In this document: one piece after another, positions 4,799 to 53,531 of the stretch
Layout: each line of letters starts with the position of its first letter
How positions within the stretch are numbered: the first letter of the stretch is position 1
The notes under the pieces: model-generated
Seen by the model: only the letters and a program-made list of their open reading frames with translations
Database searches by the model: none
Told to the model about the DNA's origin: nothing
Assembly (NCBI GenBank): GCA_025812035.1
Contig: GCA_025812035.1_4719.1
DNA length: 64,000 bases
From: a phage
Strand: one strand, 5' to 3'
Translations under genes and position numbers: made by a program

Positions 4799-6025
4799 CT
4801 ACTTCGTTTTTGCCGCCAACGGCTGCGATACTGTAATCTCTACCCGATTCTCATCGGTACGTTTAACGGTGATAAGGCTGCGTTCATCGCCGAATGGTTC
4901 TGCTACCTTGGAAGCCTCTTTAAGATTTTCAAGAATCTCGCCAGAGGGTTCAAACACCGCGAAACCGGAGCTAGTGTCAGTTCTTATTAAACCTACGCGC
5001 GTACCATTTACGGTAATGATGTCGTCCGTCTTGAACCCGCAGCAGGAGGGTAGACAGAACTGGCCGTTAACGCAATTAGCTAGGTATGCCTCACCGCCGA
5101 ACATTTCTATTAACGTTACCGGTTTAAATGTTTTCTCTGGGAAAGCGCTATTAAGGGTATCGTTTCCATTCACGAACCAGATCGTTACTTTATCTTCAGA
5201 ATACTCTAGTCTGTACGGCTGGGTTGCGGACGCTTGCGCTTTATGCTGATTAAATAACTTTGATTTCGTCGCAATCACAACACGACCTTCAGCATCAAAG
5301 TACAGAACTTCATATCCAACACATCCGATAAACACGCGACGGTTATTAAGTTCCGGAATTCTGACTAATAACGCATCACGGTTATAAGTAGGAATGATGC
5401 CCCGTAGGATGATCGATTCGTTGTTCAATGTTGCATTGCTCGCGACGATGCTTCGCATTGCCGCTGGCGTCAGTATTTTATCTGCTGTAGGTTTAAGTTG
5501 CTCCGCTGTTACAGTCATGGATCTATCTTCGTTTTCAACTGGCCAGTTGAAAACGATTGTTTTATTAAGACAAACAATTGGGGTAATTTCGCCGATACTC
5601 CGTATCTTGACTGAGGGGAAATTGCACACATACGGAACAAAAACATCAATATCGCTGGTCGCTTCTTCAAGCATGCTAGCATACGCCATTGCTTCGGGAC
5701 GATCGGTGAGATGAATAACAGCATAGACGATATCGTCTTTTAACCACGCATGTTTCACTCGTCCTATAACACGATTGGTGTCTACAATAACTCTCTGAGC
5801 TTTCATCTCCCATTTTACTGCATCAGTACCACCCGCAACCACATTCGGTTTATCCGCGTTTACACGATGAAGGAAACTATTGATTATTTCCTCATTGATC
5901 TGGATATCCTTTCTCGCAAAATTCAACAGCGGAATAACGAACTCATTGTTACCGCACTTCACTGCTCCGCGAATGATAGGAGTACACTTCTTGTTCTCAT
6001 CTGATCCCCAGATAACTTTAGTCAT
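4799..6025 (-). CDS. hypothetical protein (~408 aa)
   Basis: ORF track start is GTG at 6052. The ATG at 6025 has SD GAAGGA. Stop is TAG. No motif recognised. Confidence 0.6.
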   Translation of the reverse strand: MTKVIWGSDENKKCTPIIRGAVKCGNNEFVIPLLNFARKDIQINEEIINSFLHRVNADKPNVVAGGTDAVKWEMKAQRVIVDTNRVIGRVKHAWLKDDIVYAVIHLTDRPEAMAYASMLEEATSDIDVFVPYVCNFPSVKIRSIGEITPIVCLNKTIVFNWPVENEDRSMTVTAEQLKPTADKILTPAAMRSIVASNATLNNESIILRGIIPTYNRDALLVRIPELNNRRVFIGCVGYEVLYFDAEGRVVIATKSKLFNQHKAQASATQPYRLEYSEDKVTIWFVNGNDTLNSAFPEKTFKPVTLIEMFGGEAYLANCVNGQFCLPSCCGFKTDDIITVNGTRVGLIRTDTSSGFAVFEPSGEILENLKEASKVAEPFGDERSLITVKRTDENRVEITVSQPLAAKTK

Positions 6026-11236: not shown

Positions 11237-11626
11237 TTAACGTGTTGCGTTCTGGATAATTTCTTTTCCGATCTTAACCAAAGCAGGTATCTGTACAGCG
11301 GTTGCACCTCGATGACGAAACGCGGTCGTTAACGCGGTATCAATACTTACAGCACGTCCGTGAAGACGATCGAAATAGACTTGAGTAATTGCAGCAGCAT
11401 AATCCTTTCGCTGTTTCTTGGTCTGGTTCAACAGCGCTGTACTACTACCAACAATGAAATAAGCGATTAAGAAGAACGCTGCTGACCGCGAACCAGGTAG
11501 AAAACCTTGTCGCTTAGGAAGCATCTCACAATCACGAACAGTATTATCGTTCGCGAGCTTTTCCATGTCGACATGGCATAATTTTGCATAGGTGTGAAGA
11601 TAGTGGGTAAAAGTTGAATTTAACAT
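11237..11626 (-). CDS. hypothetical protein (129 aa)
   Basis: ORF with SD-like context. Confidence 0.5.
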   Translation of the reverse strand: MLNSTFTHYLHTYAKLCHVDMEKLANDNTVRDCEMLPKRQGFLPGSRSAAFFLIAYFIVGSSTALLNQTKKQRKDYAAAITQVYFDRLHGRAVSIDTALTTAFRHRGATAVQIPALVKIGKEIIQNATR

Positions 11627-11731
11627 TTTCTTTCCTCGGTTACAATGAGTTCAATGTATAGCTTAAACGCCGCAGAACGACGTATAACGGTTTGTTTTAA
11701 TCTCTAAGGTGTTTCCTTGTCTAAGATTGAA

Positions 11732-12094
11732 TTAAAGCGTTCTGAAGAGTTCTGTAGCGTTCTCGTCACGTAAACAGGCTTCGTTCAACAATTCAGCTAA
11801 CAGCTTCGACCGAGCTTCAACGAATGTCCTGAGGCGATGCTTCCATTCTAAACAGACGGTGTATGAACGATCTAGCTTTTTGTGCTCGACGATAGATGAC
11901 GTGCAGTAGGTTTCGCGTTTATTCACATCGTCCCAAACATCACGAATGATCGTCAAGCCTTTCTCAGTACATGTAAACGTTATAACGTAGTGATTGTTCG
12001 CTGCTTCAACATGAACATCAATAAATTCGTTTCGTAGCGATGAGGTATTGGTTAAACGATCAATAGCGAGCGATAAACCGACACGTTGTTGCAT
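11732..12094 (-). CDS. small protein, paralog family S (member 1)
   Basis: Shares FTCTEKGLTIIRD-type motif with the next two genes. Confidence 0.5.
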   Translation of the reverse strand: MQQRVGLSLAIDRLTNTSSLRNEFIDVHVEAANNHYVITFTCTEKGLTIIRDVWDDVNKRETYCTSSIVEHKKLDRSYTVCLEWKHRLRTFVEARSKLLAELLNEACLRDENATELFRTL

Positions 12095-12095
12095 A

Positions 12096-12524
12096 TCAGA
12101 CCCCCTCTTTCAGAATCTCATTAAGGCTATTAGCAACCGCATCTAACTTCGTGTTGATTACTGTTGGTGTCAATCCGTATATTTTCCAAACTATCTCCGG
12201 TTGACGTATTCCATTTGTCAGACAATGCATTTCGATCGACAACACCATATCGTCGGTGAACGTCGTGCTTTCGCAACAACGAAGATAGGCAGCCTCAAGC
12301 AACGTCTTTCCTAACGTGGTACACACAAAAGTCAATCGAACGCAACGCAAAGACAACGTGTTCGCATTCATTGATGCTGAGACCGGCTGAATATGTTCAC
12401 GCAGTTTTTCGTCTTCACGTAATAGTGATAGGGTGCGATGTAAGCTGGTATGCTGAGCAACCAGCGAATGATAAAGACCAACGCGCGCTGCAGTTACTGC
12501 TGATTCGGGCCATTTAATTTGCAT
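12096..12524 (-). CDS. small protein, paralog family S (member 2)
   Basis: CTTLGKTLLEAA matches CSQTGKTLLENA in 12526-12942. Confidence 0.55.
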   Translation of the reverse strand: MQIKWPESAVTAARVGLYHSLVAQHTSLHRTLSLLREDEKLREHIQPVSASMNANTLSLRCVRLTFVCTTLGKTLLEAAYLRCCESTTFTDDMVLSIEMHCLTNGIRQPEIVWKIYGLTPTVINTKLDAVANSLNEILKEGV

Positions 12525-12525
12525 G

Positions 12526-12942
12526 TTATTTTCCTCGATTTTCTAGTTGAGACACAATACCATCGGCAACGTAATGTAACTGGACATTCAGGTCCAGCGG
12601 CGATAATGCGGAAATTGACCAGCAGGCATTTGAGGTCCAATACAACCCACCTTCACCCAAAGAGACTTCCCACGTTAACTTCGTTATGACGTCTCTGGCT
12701 CGCTGCTCACTATATCGAAATGCATTTTCCAACAATGTTTTTCCCGTTTGTGAACATAAAAAGCACAGTTTCACATCTGTGTCCGTCTTTTCAAAATCAA
12801 ACAATCGAAAATGGTCGGTCAAAGAGGTGGTGGAGGCTAGGCATTGCAATGCGTCTTCCAACGCAAGATGGTCTAGCGTTTCTAAGTTCTTGCATGGCTG
12901 TTTTGGTGCAAGTGCGATTGATTTGCAGAATTTAACGTTCAT
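12526..12942 (-). CDS. small protein, paralog family S (member 3)
   Basis: See previous entry. Tightly packed with 1-nt spacing. Confidence 0.55.
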   Translation of the reverse strand: MNVKFCKSIALAPKQPCKNLETLDHLALEDALQCLASTTSLTDHFRLFDFEKTDTDVKLCFLCSQTGKTLLENAFRYSEQRARDVITKLTWEVSLGEGGLYWTSNACWSISALSPLDLNVQLHYVADGIVSQLENRGK

Positions 12943-12990
12943 GGTTATTTCCTCGTAGTGTTAAGTGGGGACACACCTGTCCCCGAATAA

Positions 12991-13461
12991 TTAGATTACA
13001 TCCCAAGCTGCGTTGGGTATGGGTTGGTTACGATCGATGTAATACATCATGCTTTCTTTAAGTTTGGTCAGCACATCAGCAACGATGTTCTCTACGGCAA
13101 TCACCTTTTCCATGTTGCTCATCGTATCTTGCCACGTGAACCATTCGATCACATTGACGATATGTAAGACCTCATTGTCGTCGGTCATGACCTGGGCATT
13201 TTCACGATGGTCTCGAGTTGTGTACAACGGTGTTTGTATATTCGTTTTAATACGCGTCCAAAGCTTCTCAAGAAAGTTCGTCGGTTGATTATTCGTCGCG
13301 ATGATAAGCTCACTGCGTACCAAATGTTCTCCTCGCTTCTCAATGGCAAGTAACCCATCGTAAGTGATGTTCATCAAGTTACGGAGGTCATCATTGCTAT
13401 TCCAGTCTTTTACGACAGCAGGAAGTTGGCTGTTGTAGCCTTCGGGTAATTTTTCAATCAT
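12991..13461 (-). CDS. hypothetical protein (156 aa)
   Basis: ORF in a co-directional array. Confidence 0.55.
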   Translation of the reverse strand: MIEKLPEGYNSQLPAVVKDWNSNDDLRNLMNITYDGLLAIEKRGEHLVRSELIIATNNQPTNFLEKLWTRIKTNIQTPLYTTRDHRENAQVMTDDNEVLHIVNVIEWFTWQDTMSNMEKVIAVENIVADVLTKLKESMMYYIDRNQPIPNAAWDVI

Positions 13462-13906
13462 CGGTTTCTGCTCCTATATCACGTTTAAGGTCGACCACCA
13501 GTTTTTCATAATGGTCTTTTATTACATTAGCAATAACGAATTGCACTTTTCTCACTAGCTGCTCATCGGCATCGTTGAACGTAAAATGCTCACGCACTTC
13601 AACCGGACGTGACGCGCCACCGATATCGTAAACTTTATTCGATGTACGACGAGCGATTACCGGTAGCGATTCCATGGTGTTCAGCGCAGTACAGATTTCC
13701 GTAACGAGTTCTTGAATACTGCTTCTGCCTTCGATGATAACAGAACAGCGATAGACATCCACTTCGTTAAGCTGTTCAACGACATCCGCCTTGATTTTGA
13801 AATTCCCAATAAGAGCGCTAACCAAAGTGCGATGCCAGTTGTTCACTACCCCAACCAGCAAGGGATGATTCTCAAGATCCCTTTTGTTCATCTCTAAGCC
13901 CCTCAA
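13454..13906 (-). CDS. hypothetical protein (150 aa)
   Basis: ORF overlapping the downstream gene by 8 nt. Confidence 0.55.
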   Translation of the reverse strand: MRGLEMNKRDLENHPLLVGVVNNWHRTLVSALIGNFKIKADVVEQLNEVDVYRCSVIIEGRSSIQELVTEICTALNTMESLPVIARRTSNKVYDIGGASRPVEVREHFTFNDADEQLVRKVQFVIANVIKDHYEKLVVDLKRDIGAETDD

Positions 13907-13929
13907 TCGTTCTATAACAAACTTTTATT

Positions 13930-13952
13930 GGAAGGGAATATGTTTCCCTTCC
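13930..13952. other. perfect 9-bp GC hairpin GGAAGGGAA/TTCCCTTCC (family-related)
   Basis: Sits between co-directional genes and has no adjacent U-tract. Confidence 0.4.
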
Positions 13953-13970
13953 TTGGGTTCGGTTATTGCG

Positions 13971-14246
13971 TTACGCAGCTTTACAGCTTGCGTAAACCAC
14001 AATCGTTCCGTTGTTGATTGCCTCAACAATTTCCTGGGTCAGTTTGGTCGCTAATTTATTATCCGTCCCCGGTACGTAATAACCTTCTCCTGTTTCAGTG
14101 ATTAAGCGATAACGTACTAATCCCACCGTACGCTCAACGCGTACCACCTTTTCAAGTTTGTGTTTGATGATCTTCGTCAGACTGATTGTATCTGACGTGT
14201 AGATCGCTTTATAAACTTTGTTCTTTGCTGTCGGTTTCATCAACAT
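13971..14246 (-). CDS. hypothetical protein (91 aa)
   Basis: ORF in the array. Confidence 0.5.
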   Translation of the reverse strand: MLMKPTAKNKVYKAIYTSDTISLTKIIKHKLEKVVRVERTVGLVRYRLITETGEGYYVPGTDNKLATKLTQEIVEAINNGTIVVYASCKAA

Positions 14247-15102
14247 GGTTTCTGTTTTCCTCGGTTTGTTGTGGTGCTAGGTCAGAGATATCCCATCGGA
14301 CATAACCGATCTCACTGATTCGCTCTGCTACCTCTTCGGTTTGCGAATTACGACTAATCATCGGTAACCATTCTCCGTGTCCGGTGATCTTGACTTCCGT
14401 AAGCTGTAAACTCATGTTCCAACGAACATCGTAAACCAACGCATAGCCAAGAGGATGAACAAGTCCATCTTGGGCGTACATCGTCAAAAGACCTCTTACA
14501 TCTTCGCTACGAAGTGATTTCATGGATGGGCGTACGCGTTGAAGTCTATTTGTGATATCGTATCCCAACTCGATGTCTTTCCAACCTGTCATGGCGTAAG
14601 GAATAACGTTACGACGACGGAGCTGATAGTTGTGAGTGGTTTCTTCGGCGGTAAGGTGTACCCAACCGAGATCGCTGTATGCGACAAACCGCACCGTATC
14701 ACCATCGATTGCAGTATGCCCATCTAACGCTGCTGCAACACCGTGGCCTGCGTAATACGGCGGAATAACGTTAATCATTTTAATACGACTTTCTTGACCG
14801 GTATGGTCAGGATCGATATGTGCGTAGAAACAATTATGGCTTACAGGGCGACCTTCCGCCATACGCCCACGGAAGACAGGGTCCTGCATTCCGAGCGGAT
14901 GGTAATACGCGAGCTGTTGCTCTTCACCTTCCCCGATTACCAACAAACGATCTTCACGACTTGGCGTACTAGGATCTTTCACTGTGATGTAACTAACAAC
15001 CGGTTTCAGGTTGTTTAAAATGTCCTCTGTAAGTTTCTCTAAATCCGATGCTGCGTAAATACGGTTAACAACGGTGTTTACAAGGTGTTTTGATAAGCTC
15101 AT
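14209..15102 (-). CDS. paralog family H protein A (unknown function)
   Basis: Shares YHPLGMQD, a second HPLGY motif and C-terminal GYVRWDISDL with 15184-16074. Confidence 0.65.
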   Translation of the reverse strand: MSLSKHLVNTVVNRIYAASDLEKLTEDILNNLKPVVSYITVKDPSTPSREDRLLVIGEGEEQQLAYYHPLGMQDPVFRGRMAEGRPVSHNCFYAHIDPDHTGQESRIKMINVIPPYYAGHGVAAALDGHTAIDGDTVRFVAYSDLGWVHLTAEETTHNYQLRRRNVIPYAMTGWKDIELGYDITNRLQRVRPSMKSLRSEDVRGLLTMYAQDGLVHPLGYALVYDVRWNMSLQLTEVKITGHGEWLPMISRNSQTEEVAERISEIGYVRWDISDLAPQQTEENRNHVDETDSKEQSL

Positions 15103-15183
15103 TTTAGATCTCTCTTTGTTAATGGTAAATAAATAACGGCATAAAAAGGGGACAACGCTGTCCCCGTGTTAGGTATTATCTGC

Positions 15184-16074
15184 TTACGGCTTCAAATCCG
15201 AAATATCCCAGCGTACGTAACCTGTGTGTTCGATATCCTCGACCAATTGCTCGGTTTGATTTTCAACACCGACAACGGGAACCCAATTCAACTGTTGGCT
15301 ACGTATACCGATGTTAACCTCGACACGCTGCAGATCATCATTCCAACGAACCCCGGCCGGTTTCACAAAACCCAGCGGATGGATAAAACTAAGATCGTCG
15401 CTGAAATCACGAAGAACGCGCAATGTATCGATGGATGAAGGGTTATCATAGCGAACAGGACGTACGCTTTGCAGTTTATCGTATACCGCTCGAGCTGCGC
15501 GCTCGTCACGCCAGGTCGTCATGTATACCGGTTTTATACCACGTTTTAGAAGATGATCGATCTGGATCGCGATGTTATCGTGAACATACATGCAGCCCTG
15601 TTCGGTTTCGGTGTTGTAACCACCATCTTCTAACCGGTTCGGATACGTCAGATGGTCTACCGTCACAGCAACTCCTTCAGCGAACGTGTTCAACGGAAGA
15701 AAACGTTGCAGACTCGTTATCGGATAATCGGGCGACATCCCAGGACGGATATGCGCCATCGTCCCCCAACTGTCAGGGAAGCCATGTCGGTATATGTATT
15801 GCCGGAATACCTCATCCTGCATCCCTAACGGATACCATCGTGCAAGCCGCTGTTGCTCACCATCCTGAATAACAAAAAGCATTTCTTTGCGATTCGGCCA
15901 TCGATGATGTTCCACGGTCAAGCCATCAACAACCGGTCTTAAATTGTTCTTGATGTGTTCTGGAAGTTTATCCACCTCTTCACGACGATAAAAACGATCG
16001 ATGACGATGATGTCAACCTTCCCATGATTGAACCAGTTCATGTTAACTCCCTCTGTGGTGCGAAAACAAAACAT
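15184..16074 (-). CDS. paralog family H protein B (unknown function)
   Basis: See A. An alternative ATG at 16041 has SD GAGGGA. Confidence 0.65.
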   Translation of the reverse strand: MFCFRTTEGVNMNWFNHGKVDIIVIDRFYRREEVDKLPEHIKNNLRPVVDGLTVEHHRWPNRKEMLFVIQDGEQQRLARWYPLGMQDEVFRQYIYRHGFPDSWGTMAHIRPGMSPDYPITSLQRFLPLNTFAEGVAVTVDHLTYPNRLEDGGYNTETEQGCMYVHDNIAIQIDHLLKRGIKPVYMTTWRDERAARAVYDKLQSVRPVRYDNPSSIDTLRVLRDFSDDLSFIHPLGFVKPAGVRWNDDLQRVEVNIGIRSQQLNWVPVVGVENQTEQLVEDIEHTGYVRWDISDLKP

Positions 16075-16333
16075 CTAATTGCTCCCGTTGTTCTTTTAAG
16101 TATGCGGGAAGCTGGTCTTCCCGTACCGTTCCGATTTCTAACATGATGTACCAGCGTTGTTCGGAAGCCTGCCATTGAAAACTGCTCTGTAAACGTAGGA
16201 TGCTAGGATCATGTACCTTGCTTGCGCTGTAACGGTTGAACCAGCCCAGGTAAGCGGCTTTCCCCTCCTCATCGGCAACGTAACGCTGCACGCTGTTCTT
16301 CCCTTTGTTTTCGTATCCTGTTGCATGTATCAT
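16043..16333 (-). CDS. hypothetical small protein (~96 aa)
   Basis: ATG at 16333 overlaps the upstream stop as ATGA. ORF track gives 16043-16390. Confidence 0.5.
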   Translation of the reverse strand: MIHATGYENKGKNSVQRYVADEEGKAAYLGWFNRYSASKVHDPSILRLQSSFQWQASEQRWYIMLEIGTVREDQLPAYLKEQREQLDVLFSHHRGS

Positions 16334-17106
16334 GCGAACGTTTCTCCTGTAACGTGTTGTGGGCGTTGCAGCATGGTAGCATCCCAGCATACCAGCTTGC
16401 TTTTCTCAAGCATCTTCCGCGCCGTATCAACGCTAACGCCAGGATGCATGACAGGTAGCCAACGTTCGTTAAGCACCTTGGCTTCCAGGCGTTGCTTGCG
16501 CTTATTGTATTGTACCTCGCTAACCCATGCGTAACCGAAAGGATGGATAACCCGTGGGTAGTAACGTTTAAGCATCATCAGTCTTTGCTGATAAAGCTTA
16601 TCGGAACCCTCACCAACGAATAAGGCAACCCGTTCCAACCGCTTGGTGTAATACGTTCCGGTGGTATGATTGATCCAACCAGGAAGCGTTCGTACATCAT
16701 TTTCGAGTGTTCCTGATACGTTATGCACTTCACCGCTATACACCGTCCCAACAACCTGATTCGTTGCGTCCACCATCGACCGTGGCAAAGCATCCGCGGT
16801 AGGATACAACCATGCATCCCCAAGCTGCTCTCCCGACGCAAGTACCCGTAATCCGCTTGCGCTCACCCGCAACGGATGCTGGCTCTTATGCGCACGCAAC
16901 TGCACCACAGATAAGTCTACCGGATGGGCGATGCAACAGCCACGCTGACGGAACAGTCCAACCTCACCATCCACCCCTTCGATCATGCTTCCTTCCGAAC
17001 CGTTCCACCAACGTTTAACCTTCACGCATTCGGCTTGCACCGTTTCAGGCAACGTTAAATAATCGTGTTCAATAAACACCACATCAAAAATCAATGCTTC
17101 TTTCAT
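16330..17106 (-). CDS. paralog family H protein C (unknown function)
   Basis: Single HPFGY motif and related C-terminus. SD AGAGGA upstream. Confidence 0.65.
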   Translation of the reverse strand: MKEALIFDVVFIEHDYLTLPETVQAECVKVKRWWNGSEGSMIEGVDGEVGLFRQRGCCIAHPVDLSVVQLRAHKSQHPLRVSASGLRVLASGEQLGDAWLYPTADALPRSMVDATNQVVGTVYSGEVHNVSGTLENDVRTLPGWINHTTGTYYTKRLERVALFVGEGSDKLYQQRLMMLKRYYPRVIHPFGYAWVSEVQYNKRKQRLEAKVLNERWLPVMHPGVSVDTARKMLEKSKLVCWDATMLQRPQHVTGETFA

Positions 17107-17191
17107 CTAAAAAGATCCTCTGTTTTTTCACGTTAATTAAACAACGTATTGATTTCTATTCGATAGCAATACGAACATCGTACGTACGCAT

Positions 17192-17215
17192 CACTTAGGT
17201 AATATAGCCGTGAAA
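17192..17215. promoter_or_regulatory. conserved 24-nt motif (copy 2; CACTTAGGTAATATAGCCGTGAAA)
   Basis: One mismatch to the consensus. About 90 nt from the start of 16330-17106. Confidence 0.45.
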
Positions 17216-17858
17216 GGATTTGTGTTACAGAAAGGGTTTTGTTGTGTTTTAAGAAGGGATGGATAGTGATGTTATCTGAAAGGAGGATTTCAAGAAAGGT
17301 CTTGATTGAAGTAGGTGGAGTAAGTGAAGAGGTGAATAAACGAGAAGGGTTAGTTTGGTTGATGTAAGATGTTATCTTGTTATTGTTTTCATGTTTATCT
17401 TAGGTTATGTCTTAATTGTTCATATTCCTGATTGTTTAAGTTGTCTTATTTATCTTGTTTATATAAATAAAATTAAATTATAAAGTCAATCAACATGCTT
17501 ATAAGTTGGATAACTCAAAAAAACCATTTGTGATACTCTTCTTCACGTTGTTCATCAGAGTATCTCGTCTATACTCATTGCATTCGTATACGACATAACC
17601 GTTATACGCTAACGCTACGCTTATAGCTTGATAACTCTAAGGATAAAAACATAAACTCGCTTCGCTCGTTTAGTTTTTCTTTTTCTTAGAGTTATCTTGT
17701 TGCTCGTCTCTAAAGGACTTCGCTCCTCCCCCGTCCCCCGAAGGGGCCGAGGTCGTGGAAATTTTACTTTCCAAATACATTTACAACATCTGTAAACTTT
17801 TACTCCAGGTACTTAATCTTATCATTAGAAATTATCAAAGAGAATAATGACAGCATAA
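17216..17858. other. large noncoding region: candidate replication origin or noncoding RNA locus
   Basis: No ORF. C-depleted purine-rich stretch, AT-rich block (17455-17490), and five or more TTATCTT-type repeats. Confidence 0.35.
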
Positions 17859-17890
17859 CCTTCCTCCAACCCAACAGGGAAGGAGGAAGG
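17859..17890. terminator. conserved two-tier GC hairpin (family copy 4)
   Basis: CCTTCCTCC-AACCCAACAGGGAA-GGAGGAAGG, 3' of the 17906-18799 gene. Confidence 0.5.
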
Positions 17891-17905
17891 GAGAGATTAA
17901 TTCAA

Positions 17906-18799
17906 TTAATCGACAGTGTTATAACCGAATACAGCTTTACCGTAAGTGTGAGTACCGTCGGTTAACGACACCACTAGTACGTGGTTGTATGCGTCGTTAA
18001 CACCCTTGTCAGTAGACCCTGTGGTAGCTCCGTTATAGACAAAGGTAGCTGTTTGCAGGTTGGCTTTCAGCTCGTTAGTGATATCATCGCTGACACCCGT
18101 CTGCTCTTTGATCAGCGTAGTCAGGTTACCTGCCAGGCTTTCACCGATCTTGGTTTCGTTACTGGTGATCGCCTGTAAACCTGTAGTGTAGGAGCTGAAG
18201 TCTAACGGATAGGTTAACAGACGCGCTGAGGTCTTGGTACCATCACCTTCATCAACGTAGGTTAAGTTACCCAGGTTGGTAACCTTGATGATGTTAGACA
18301 GATCCAGCGTTGTGTTATAAACTTTAACTTGAACAGAGCCGTACCACGCCAATGAATCTTCTTTGGCTTCCAGGGTGATCGTCTGGATACCCGATTGCTC
18401 AAAGGTAACCGGCGTAGCTAACGTTTCGGCTTTGATGTCTTTTGCTTTATCCAGGAACTTATCACCAGATGGCGTGATCATACCGTAGCGTTTCGCTACA
18501 AGGTCAACCACATCACCGATGGTGGTGTTCGCATCAACGTTAACACGCACCGCGATCTTCTGGAACCACTTAGCCAGATCCAGACGATGGTAGGTAACAT
18601 CGCGGTTATTGAAGTAAGGAGTACCTTCACCAGGACTGAGTGTTAAAGTTGCTTCTGGAGCAGAAGCGCTTTTAGATTTAAGGACGTATTTAAGGTCGGT
18701 ATATTTAAAGCTGGCACCAGTGTCGGCGTTAAGCTGGTTGATCTCATCAACGATAAGCTGCCATGGTGTTTTTAAAGTAAGCGATACTTGAGCTGTCAT
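17906..18799 (-). CDS. probable abundant virion protein (unknown function)
   Basis: Optimised codon usage and a monocistronic layout. ORF track start at 18832 is TTG; the ATG at 18799 has SD GAGGAAG. Confidence 0.6.
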   Translation of the reverse strand: MTAQVSLTLKTPWQLIVDEINQLNADTGASFKYTDLKYVLKSKSASAPEATLTLSPGEGTPYFNNRDVTYHRLDLAKWFQKIAVRVNVDANTTIGDVVDLVAKRYGMITPSGDKFLDKAKDIKAETLATPVTFEQSGIQTITLEAKEDSLAWYGSVQVKVYNTTLDLSNIIKVTNLGNLTYVDEGDGTKTSARLLTYPLDFSSYTTGLQAITSNETKIGESLAGNLTTLIKEQTGVSDDITNELKANLQTATFVYNGATTGSTDKGVNDAYNHVLVVSLTDGTHTYGKAVFGYNTVD

Positions 18800-18854
18800 T
18801 TTCTTCCTCGATAGTTTGTACATCACTCTCAAAAGATGTAAGTGTTTACAGAAA

Positions 18855-45203: not shown

Positions 45204-45347
45204 CCTCCATCAGATTGAAAACTATCACGCATAATGCATTTCCCTTTTCTTGTTCTTATCGAGCCGACAGCCGACGGTTTCAGCATCGTTCCTAGCGCGA
45301 GAACGACCTTACGTGTTGTCTATGCCTTATTCATCGCAGGCGTCTGT

Positions 45348-45371
45348 CACCTAGGTAATGTAAGCGTCAAA
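45348..45371. promoter_or_regulatory. conserved 24-nt motif (copy 3; CACCTAGGTAATGTAAGCGTCAAA)
   Basis: Part of the ~90-bp cassette 45348-45437 with a family hairpin. Confidence 0.45.
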
Positions 45372-53451: not shown

Positions 53452-53507
53452 GATTGTATCCTCGGTTGTTAAGAGAAATTTACAGCGATAACAGTAACCG
53501 TTGTTAT

Positions 53508-53531
53508 CACCTAGGTAATATAGTCGTGAAA
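53508..53531. promoter_or_regulatory. conserved 24-nt motif (copy 4; CACCTAGGTAATATAGTCGTGAAA)
   Basis: Part of the ~90-bp cassette 53508-53597. Confidence 0.45.

Follow-up and report, generated by a model that had tools for sequence, protein, structure and literature searches.

A variable-copy array of one Goslarvirus-specific gene family heads a putative early operon in a relative of Escherichia phage Goslar

The window analysed here is a 64,000-nt stretch of phage DNA (contig GCA_025812035.1_4719.1 of assembly GCA_025812035.1), and all coordinates refer to it. It carries three genes of one protein family, called A, B and C, together with a small gene, s96, and the locus would be an expandable array of one to four gene cassettes heading an early operon. 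We call the family gp021-like, since C belongs to the ortholog class of gp021 of Escherichia phage Goslar, a nucleus-forming jumbo phage. Read along the minus strand, the features of the array and its upstream region are as follows.

17191-17214, minus strand: candidate early promoter motif of the virion RNA polymerase, TTCACGGCTATATTACCTAAGTGA, about 85-100 nt upstream of C
17107-17190, minus strand: leader (5' untranslated region) with the Shine-Dalgarno sequence AGAGGA; its last ~55 nt are nearly invariant
16330-17106, minus strand: gene C, first gene of the operon, an intact open reading frame (ORF) of 258 amino acids (aa), isoelectric point (pI) 8.6; ortholog class of Goslar gp021
16043-16333, minus strand: small gene s96, 96 aa; ortholog of Goslar gp020 (86% identity)
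15184-16041, minus strand: gene B, with its likely start (the ORF reaches 16074); 285 aa, pI 5.9, intact ORF
15148-15165, minus strand: GC hairpin GGGGACA-loop-TGTCCCC with a U-run, in the gap between B and A; across loci the stem is kept while the loop changes
14209-15102, minus strand: gene A, last family member of the array; 297 aa, pI 5.45, net charge -11

It turned out that the three ORFs named in the original prediction are intact and all lie on the minus strand, and the small coupled gene that it placed between B and C is there as well. The start codon of s96 overlaps the stop codon of C (ATGA) and its stop codon lies 1 nt before the likely start of B, which indicates that s96 is translationally coupled to both neighbours. 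The boundaries first listed stand for A and C, and that of B has to be moved. Translation of B most likely starts at 16041 (MNWF...), because this position is preceded by a GGGAG Shine-Dalgarno sequence and agrees with the orthologs P0018 and P0035; the alternative ATG at 16074 falls within s96. Across loci, s96 is well conserved (at least 81% identity). The products of A, B and C are predicted to be soluble and to have no membrane segments, A and B being acidic and C basic.

Genes A and B were described as paralogs of C from shared motifs, and this relationship holds. A and B can be aligned from end to end (35% identity, E-value 1e-44). By BLAST, the match between C and A is confined to the C-terminal ~110 aa (E-value 1e-7); when a profile of 13 A/B-type sequences was compared with a profile of 12 C-type sequences, hhalign matched 239 columns (98.4%, E-value 1.1e-14), which makes C a genuine paralog over its full length, if a divergent one. 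The family signature W...L..V...L...HPxG...W.P...WD..L, together with an N-terminal module, is found in A, B, C and at least 33 database homologs. Thirteen positions are invariant across all subfamilies (A numbering): M1, L24, W174, L187, V190, L206, H216, P217, G219, W245, W270, D271 and L275. Among the motifs thought to be common to all three proteins, the second HP(L/F)G(Y/F) and the W-D of RWDISDL are invariant, and the histidine of the second motif, whose conservation had been proposed as a check, is H216. The first motif, xLxVIxDGEQQxLAxxxPLGMQD, is confined to the A/B type; at this position C has the degenerate IEGVDGE...AHP (window-type C) or YP (Goslar-type C). Conservation across alleles is found in the N-terminal ~60 and the C-terminal ~110 residues, and the middle falls to 13-15% identity between C classes.

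The proposal that the doubled HPLG motif reflects an internal duplication is not supported. Smith-Waterman scores of the N-terminal against the C-terminal half lie within the shuffle range for A, B and C, and a repeated 4-mer arises in 36% of A shuffles. Comparison of half-profiles by hhalign matched no more than 25 columns locally, near the two HPLG motifs (1-3% probability). The two motifs also differ in structural context in the AlphaFold2 model of A, in which the first follows a strand and opens a helix, while the second follows a helix and a loop and precedes a beta-hairpin.

To place the locus among known phages, window positions 13000-18000 were compared with a phage collection, and the sole match was Escherichia phage Goslar (85.7% identity over 31%), which identifies the window phage as a relative of Goslar. 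Goslar gp021, gp020 and gp019 (YP_009820706, YP_009820705 and YP_009820704; all labeled "hypothetical protein") have the same position and orientation as C, s96 and the next gene downstream of the array, g91. Goslar gp021 shares 44% identity with the C of the window and 87-96% with "Goslar-type" C alleles elsewhere, and Goslar has a single C-type copy with no counterpart of A or B. A search of 5.8 billion clustered proteins gave 19 homologs for A and 14 for C, and the long contigs with these homologs measure 235-248 kb. An exhaustive search with a hidden Markov model against 1.84 billion representatives returned nine proteins, all of them family members except P0039 (548 aa), a spurious hit produced by a translated ~68-aa tandem repeat with VVHPFGY. 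By these searches the family is confined to Goslar-like phages (Goslarvirus).

For A and B, no family was found in Pfam, PHROG, NCBIfam or PADLOC at E<=0.1, and C had a single chance-level PADLOC match (Csx1, E-value 0.055). Scanning 22 family members at E<=5 gave no recurrent family, and a sequence profile search of the PDB gave no match to the family. The AlphaFold model of A (predicted local distance difference test, pLDDT, 79) had no structural match, with AFDB outside the search. This agrees with the first impression of no known fold, and homology to a housekeeping enzyme or a virion family, which had been named as evidence against that prediction, did not appear with this model. The model of C is poor in the middle (pLDDT 58), and its termini reproduce the order of secondary structures in A. 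When s96 was used as a single query in the genome-contig scan, nothing was found. A literature search found no paper mentioning Goslar gp21 or gp021; one paper on Avs5/JADA was considered and proved unrelated to the family. Within the reach of these searches the gp021-like family is new, that is, undescribed and without known relatives.

With the fold unmatched there is room for a new enzyme class. The proteins would then be novel enzymes, in which the His of HPxG and the Asp of WD form a catalytic or metal site that modifies or cleaves a macromolecule of host or phage at an early stage of infection, and the paralogs would differ in substrate range. H216 and D271 are indeed invariant in all three subfamilies. 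We regard this explanation as improbable: these are just two polar invariants, joined by a near-invariant T184, and the remaining invariants are W, L, V, P and G, a composition which argues for a scaffold over an active site. Besides, the 22 members show no recurrent weak match to an enzyme family, and alleles differ by replacement of the central region, the expected site of a substrate pocket.

The surroundings of the array consist of a virion gene upstream and further small genes downstream.

17906-18832, minus strand: DUF7941 protein (E-value 2e-51), ortholog of Goslar gp022
13971-14246, minus strand: g91, 91 aa, basic; ortholog of Goslar gp019 (72%)
11237-13906, minus strand: the rest of the early hypervariable block (g145, g156, g138, g142, g120 and g129), equivalent to Goslar gp014-018

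We surveyed copy number and position of the array in about 25 loci (numbered with L below). In all of them the array opens the early block at a fixed position, flanked by the DUF7941 virion gene and g91, and all ORFs are intact. The number of family copies ranges from one to four.

1 copy: Goslar, L007, L020, L023
2 copies: L004, L011/L012, L024
3 copies: the window, L002/L003, L005, L013, L014, L016, L021; also L008-L010
4 copies: L017 (ERZ1026852 NODE-3, 249,220 bp)

The array of L017 is the largest seen, on one of the largest contigs, and has the order third-class C, s96, B, a P0015-like copy, A. Gene C is found in every locus whose contig covers that part, and s96 is missing solely in L008-L010. 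The flanking proteins (SbcC-like, baseplate, g129 and endolysin) are 89-100% identical to those of the window, mostly 94-100%, whereas identity in the stretch g120 to C is anywhere from 27% to 100%, with genes present in some phages and absent in others. The C alleles fall into two main classes with ~43% identity, plus a third that is 59% identical to the Goslar type. Each C class is found with each B class, giving all four pairings. Mosaic alleles with breakpoints inside genes are also seen; for instance, B of L003 has 81-83% identity in its first 170 residues and 48-65% in the rest. In L004 (Shigella flexneri GCA_022679365.1, 235.5-kb contig, ~5930-6000), which has no B, the stop codon of s96 is followed by ATGAAC, the hairpin that normally follows B, and an A-type gene. 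The first two codons of B are joined straight to the post-B hairpin, so this junction is a precise scar of B deletion. The B-A hairpin is a candidate for a recombination joint, and also for a terminator-like or RNA-stability element.

For the rates of change, the median pairwise ratio of nonsynonymous to synonymous substitutions (dN/dS) is 0.25 for A, 0.32 for B, 0.32 for s96 and 0.27 for C, and the corresponding polymorphism ratio (pN/pS) within orthologous clades is 0.24-0.36. The flanking genes have much lower dN/dS (SbcC-like 0.02, baseplate 0.03, endolysin 0.07). Values of 0.25-0.36 against 0.02-0.07 show that the array genes are real, constrained, and evolving about tenfold faster than core genes. 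The same numbers, tenfold above the core and well below 1 with no window exceeding 1, would suit dispensable, nearly neutral ORFan duplicates, or an accessory role inside the phage, in which the proteins take part in early-vesicle or nucleus biogenesis and co-evolve with phage proteins. Goslar manages with a single copy, and many jumbo-phage ORFans show no phenotype. This account is unlikely, although it keeps some weight. The intact ORFs of the ~25 loci and the pN/pS values indicate that function is maintained, and C, present in every covered locus, stands first behind a conserved promoter-like motif and leader. Moreover, the split between C classes is far deeper than the synonymous divergence of the flanks (dS 0.3-0.4) or relaxed drift predicts, and this suggests that alleles have been exchanged or that allelic classes have persisted for long.

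Four copies of the 24-nt motif TTCACGnCTATATTACCTArGTGA are present in the window, where chance would give 0. They all lie on the minus strand (2510-2533, 17191-17214, 45347-45370 and 53507-53530), and each heads a block of the same strand with early Goslar orthologs (gp001-004, gp014-021, gp037-040 and gp044-047). Upstream of C the motif is conserved in all loci aligned, at a distance from the ATG of 91-100 nt in most of them and of 138 or 194 nt where there are insertions, and Goslar has it with one substitution. Its 16-nt core was found in 46 IMG/VR stretches, mostly in contigs of 215-245 kb and often several times per contig. We therefore list it as a candidate early promoter of the virion RNA polymerase. 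The leader below it is conserved in the nine-locus alignment, though the C alleles are ~43% identical, and its structure is not significant (z -0.58). The array itself has no second copy of the motif, which makes co-transcription of C, s96, B, A and g91 probable. A scan for sigma-70 promoters and terminators gave counts not above shuffled expectation, and the B-A hairpin was the sole conserved element.

Published RNA-seq of Goslar supports the early assignment. At 30 min in a ChmA knockdown, gp014-gp021 changed by +0.8 to +1.4 in log2 fold change (log2FC) (bioRxiv 10.1101/2023.09.20.558163, Suppl. Table 2), while the flanking gp005-013 and gp022-036 changed by -3 to -7 (bioRxiv 10.1101/2023.09.20.558163). 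Within the block gp014-021, gp021 has the highest read count, and the authors equated the knockdown profile with the early programme, whose transcription takes place in the early-infection vesicle (bioRxiv 10.1101/2023.09.20.558163). Since gp014-021 are expressed though nucleus formation is blocked, they constitute an early block, and the transcripts of gp019-021, the orthologs of g91, s96 and C, persist in the knockdown as expected of early genes.

The neighbourhood also suggested that the products might be packaged internal or ejected virion proteins similar to those of T4. The locus adjoins abundant virion genes of the DUF7941 family (gp022 and gp023), of which gp022 is reported to form filaments and to be abundant in the virion (~580 copies), as part of the proposed "fiber cloud", and T-even phages have polymorphic internal-protein loci. 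In addition, the neighbours gp016-018, equivalent to window 12096-13461, are listed in Goslar virions at ~0.6, ~19 and ~4 copies per virion (bioRxiv 10.64898/2026.04.21.720040). These early-block proteins may be carried over or genuinely packaged. Packaging of the gp021-like proteins is largely refuted, and we give it very little credence: gp019-021 are not among the proteins listed in the Goslar virion mass-spectrometry table, whose values extend to below 1 copy per virion (bioRxiv 10.64898/2026.04.21.720040), and their expression is early. Transcription of the block also does not depend on the nucleus, whereas the ChmA knockdown lowers that of virion genes 16-100-fold.

Gene g91 is the constant downstream neighbour and overlaps A by 38 nt. 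An acidic, disordered tail of 20 aa, QQTEENRNHVDETDSKEQSL (window 14209-14270 in A), is found on the paralog next to g91, namely A, P0014 and P0015. The tail is encoded in another frame over the start of g91 and is therefore a positional feature, not a family feature. Further downstream, g142 and g138 (12096-12942, minus strand) make up a second tandem paralog pair, with 25% identity over the full length (E-value 1e-7), a shared motif xLxFxCxxxGKTLLE, and alleles that vary highly between phages (47-100%). Gene g120 (11732-12094) is a possible distant third relative (E-value 0.04). None of these three had a family match, and g156 and g145 showed no detectable relationship to each other. Upstream of C, as far as the late DUF7941 virion gene, lies an unusually long AT-rich non-coding stretch of about 800 bp (17107-17905), with hairpins after the DUF7941 stop and a length that differs between phages. 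An Rfam scan of 13800-18000 gave no match.

From these data we propose how the locus could work. Transcription would be driven from the promoter-like motif, most likely by the injected virion RNA polymerase and from the early-infection vesicle, through an operon consisting of C, s96, zero to three A/B-type paralogs, g91 and further small variable genes. The products would be soluble, non-virion proteins with a predicted plan of an N-terminal beta module (~45-60 aa), a replaceable central part of ~100 aa, and a C-terminal alpha/beta module (~110 aa) carrying the invariant W, HPxG, W and WD. They may act by binding rather than by catalysis. The conserved modules would serve as a scaffold, on which s96 or a different conserved partner may dock. 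Recognition would fall to the variable middle, whose targets would be polymorphic host factors (of defence or housekeeping) or factors of rival phages in the cytoplasm before the nucleus forms. Extra paralogs and shuffled alleles could broaden or retune specificity among E. coli, Shigella and Salmonella hosts. That the proteins are made early, stay out of the virion and bind targets in aid of host takeover or counter-defence is the reading we favour, held tentatively and at somewhat short of an even chance. The role in host takeover or anti-defence that the original prediction suggested is thus supported in part. We infer the promoter function, the binding mode and this role.

Several points weigh against it. 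There is no sign of positive selection, as no 30-codon window in the orthologous clades exceeds a pN/pS of 0.71, and the rates would be explained just as well by a dispensable gene under relaxed constraint. No similarity to known anti-defence, host-takeover or exclusion proteins was found. Early expression was measured for Goslar gp021, a C-type gene, only, and is extended to A, B and the genes of the window phage by operon position, and the virion absence of gp019-021 applies to the proteins that the mass-spectrometry table lists. His and Asp, both invariant, might together make a minimal site for catalysis or metal binding. In view of the poor model of C, the idea of the variable middle as a recognition surface is a sequence-based one.

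The target might also be other phages instead of host defences, with the proteins acting in superinfection exclusion or incompatibility among co-infecting Goslar-like phages. Deep allelic classes in nearly identical backbones, freely shuffled and expressed earliest, resemble self/non-self loci, and the strict genus specificity is what a Goslarvirus target would lead one to expect. The data fit this role and the favoured one alike. The proteins resemble no known exclusion protein and, unlike many of these, have no membrane segments, and we rate this role as quite unlikely too.

A more specific form of the takeover or counter-defence reading would be that the array encodes a so far unrecognised class of early effectors which protect or prepare the cell in the pre-nucleus stage, when the phage is in the early-infection vesicle. 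Through its exchangeable middle, every paralog or allele would disable its own polymorphic immune sensor or effector of the host, s96 would be the common partner, and the joints (leader, s96, hairpin and g91) would promote cassette exchange. We offer this form as speculation, rather doubtful as a whole. Nucleus-forming jumbo phages evade DNA-targeting defences yet are exposed before the nucleus exists, and very few early accessory factors are known for this interval. The locus is a tractable candidate, since it is present in the E. coli model phage Goslar, has natural variants of one to four copies, and can be followed in hundreds of public Goslarvirus genomes. Should the family control host range or the evasion of defences, this would help to account for the spread of Goslarvirus across E. 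coli, Shigella and Salmonella and would be relevant to the choice of therapeutic jumbo phages. If the array is dispensable, it would be an ordinary ORFan expansion in a plastic region. In addition, the 24-nt motif is a testable early-promoter candidate for enterobacterial chimalliviruses.

Compared with known systems, a plastic early region with tandem accessory paralogs would belong, by analogy, to a kind already known in large phages and poxviruses. The plasticity regions of T4-type phages, polymorphic internal-protein loci and the "genomic accordion" arrays of poxviruses are hypervariable early or host-range regions, and T4-type regions and poxvirus arrays share with this locus tandem paralogs of variable copy number, allele shuffling, early expression and small proteins of unknown fold. 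They differ in that there is no sequence or structural relation and that the copy-number variation of the array is known from the comparison of genomes; besides, T4 internal proteins are packaged and gp021-like proteins, as far as the listed virion proteins go, are not. Small beta-barrel proteins of the OB-fold (oligonucleotide/oligosaccharide-binding) or chemokine-like kind, such as PRD1 SSB P12, LEF-3, ribosomal S1, PriB and others, are named for comparison only. At the locus itself, a comparison can be made with the DUF7941 virion proteins (17906-18832; Goslar gp022 and gp023), a neighbouring, chimallivirus-specific family that also has multiple paralogs. It is unrelated to the gp021-like family, late-expressed and highly abundant in virions.

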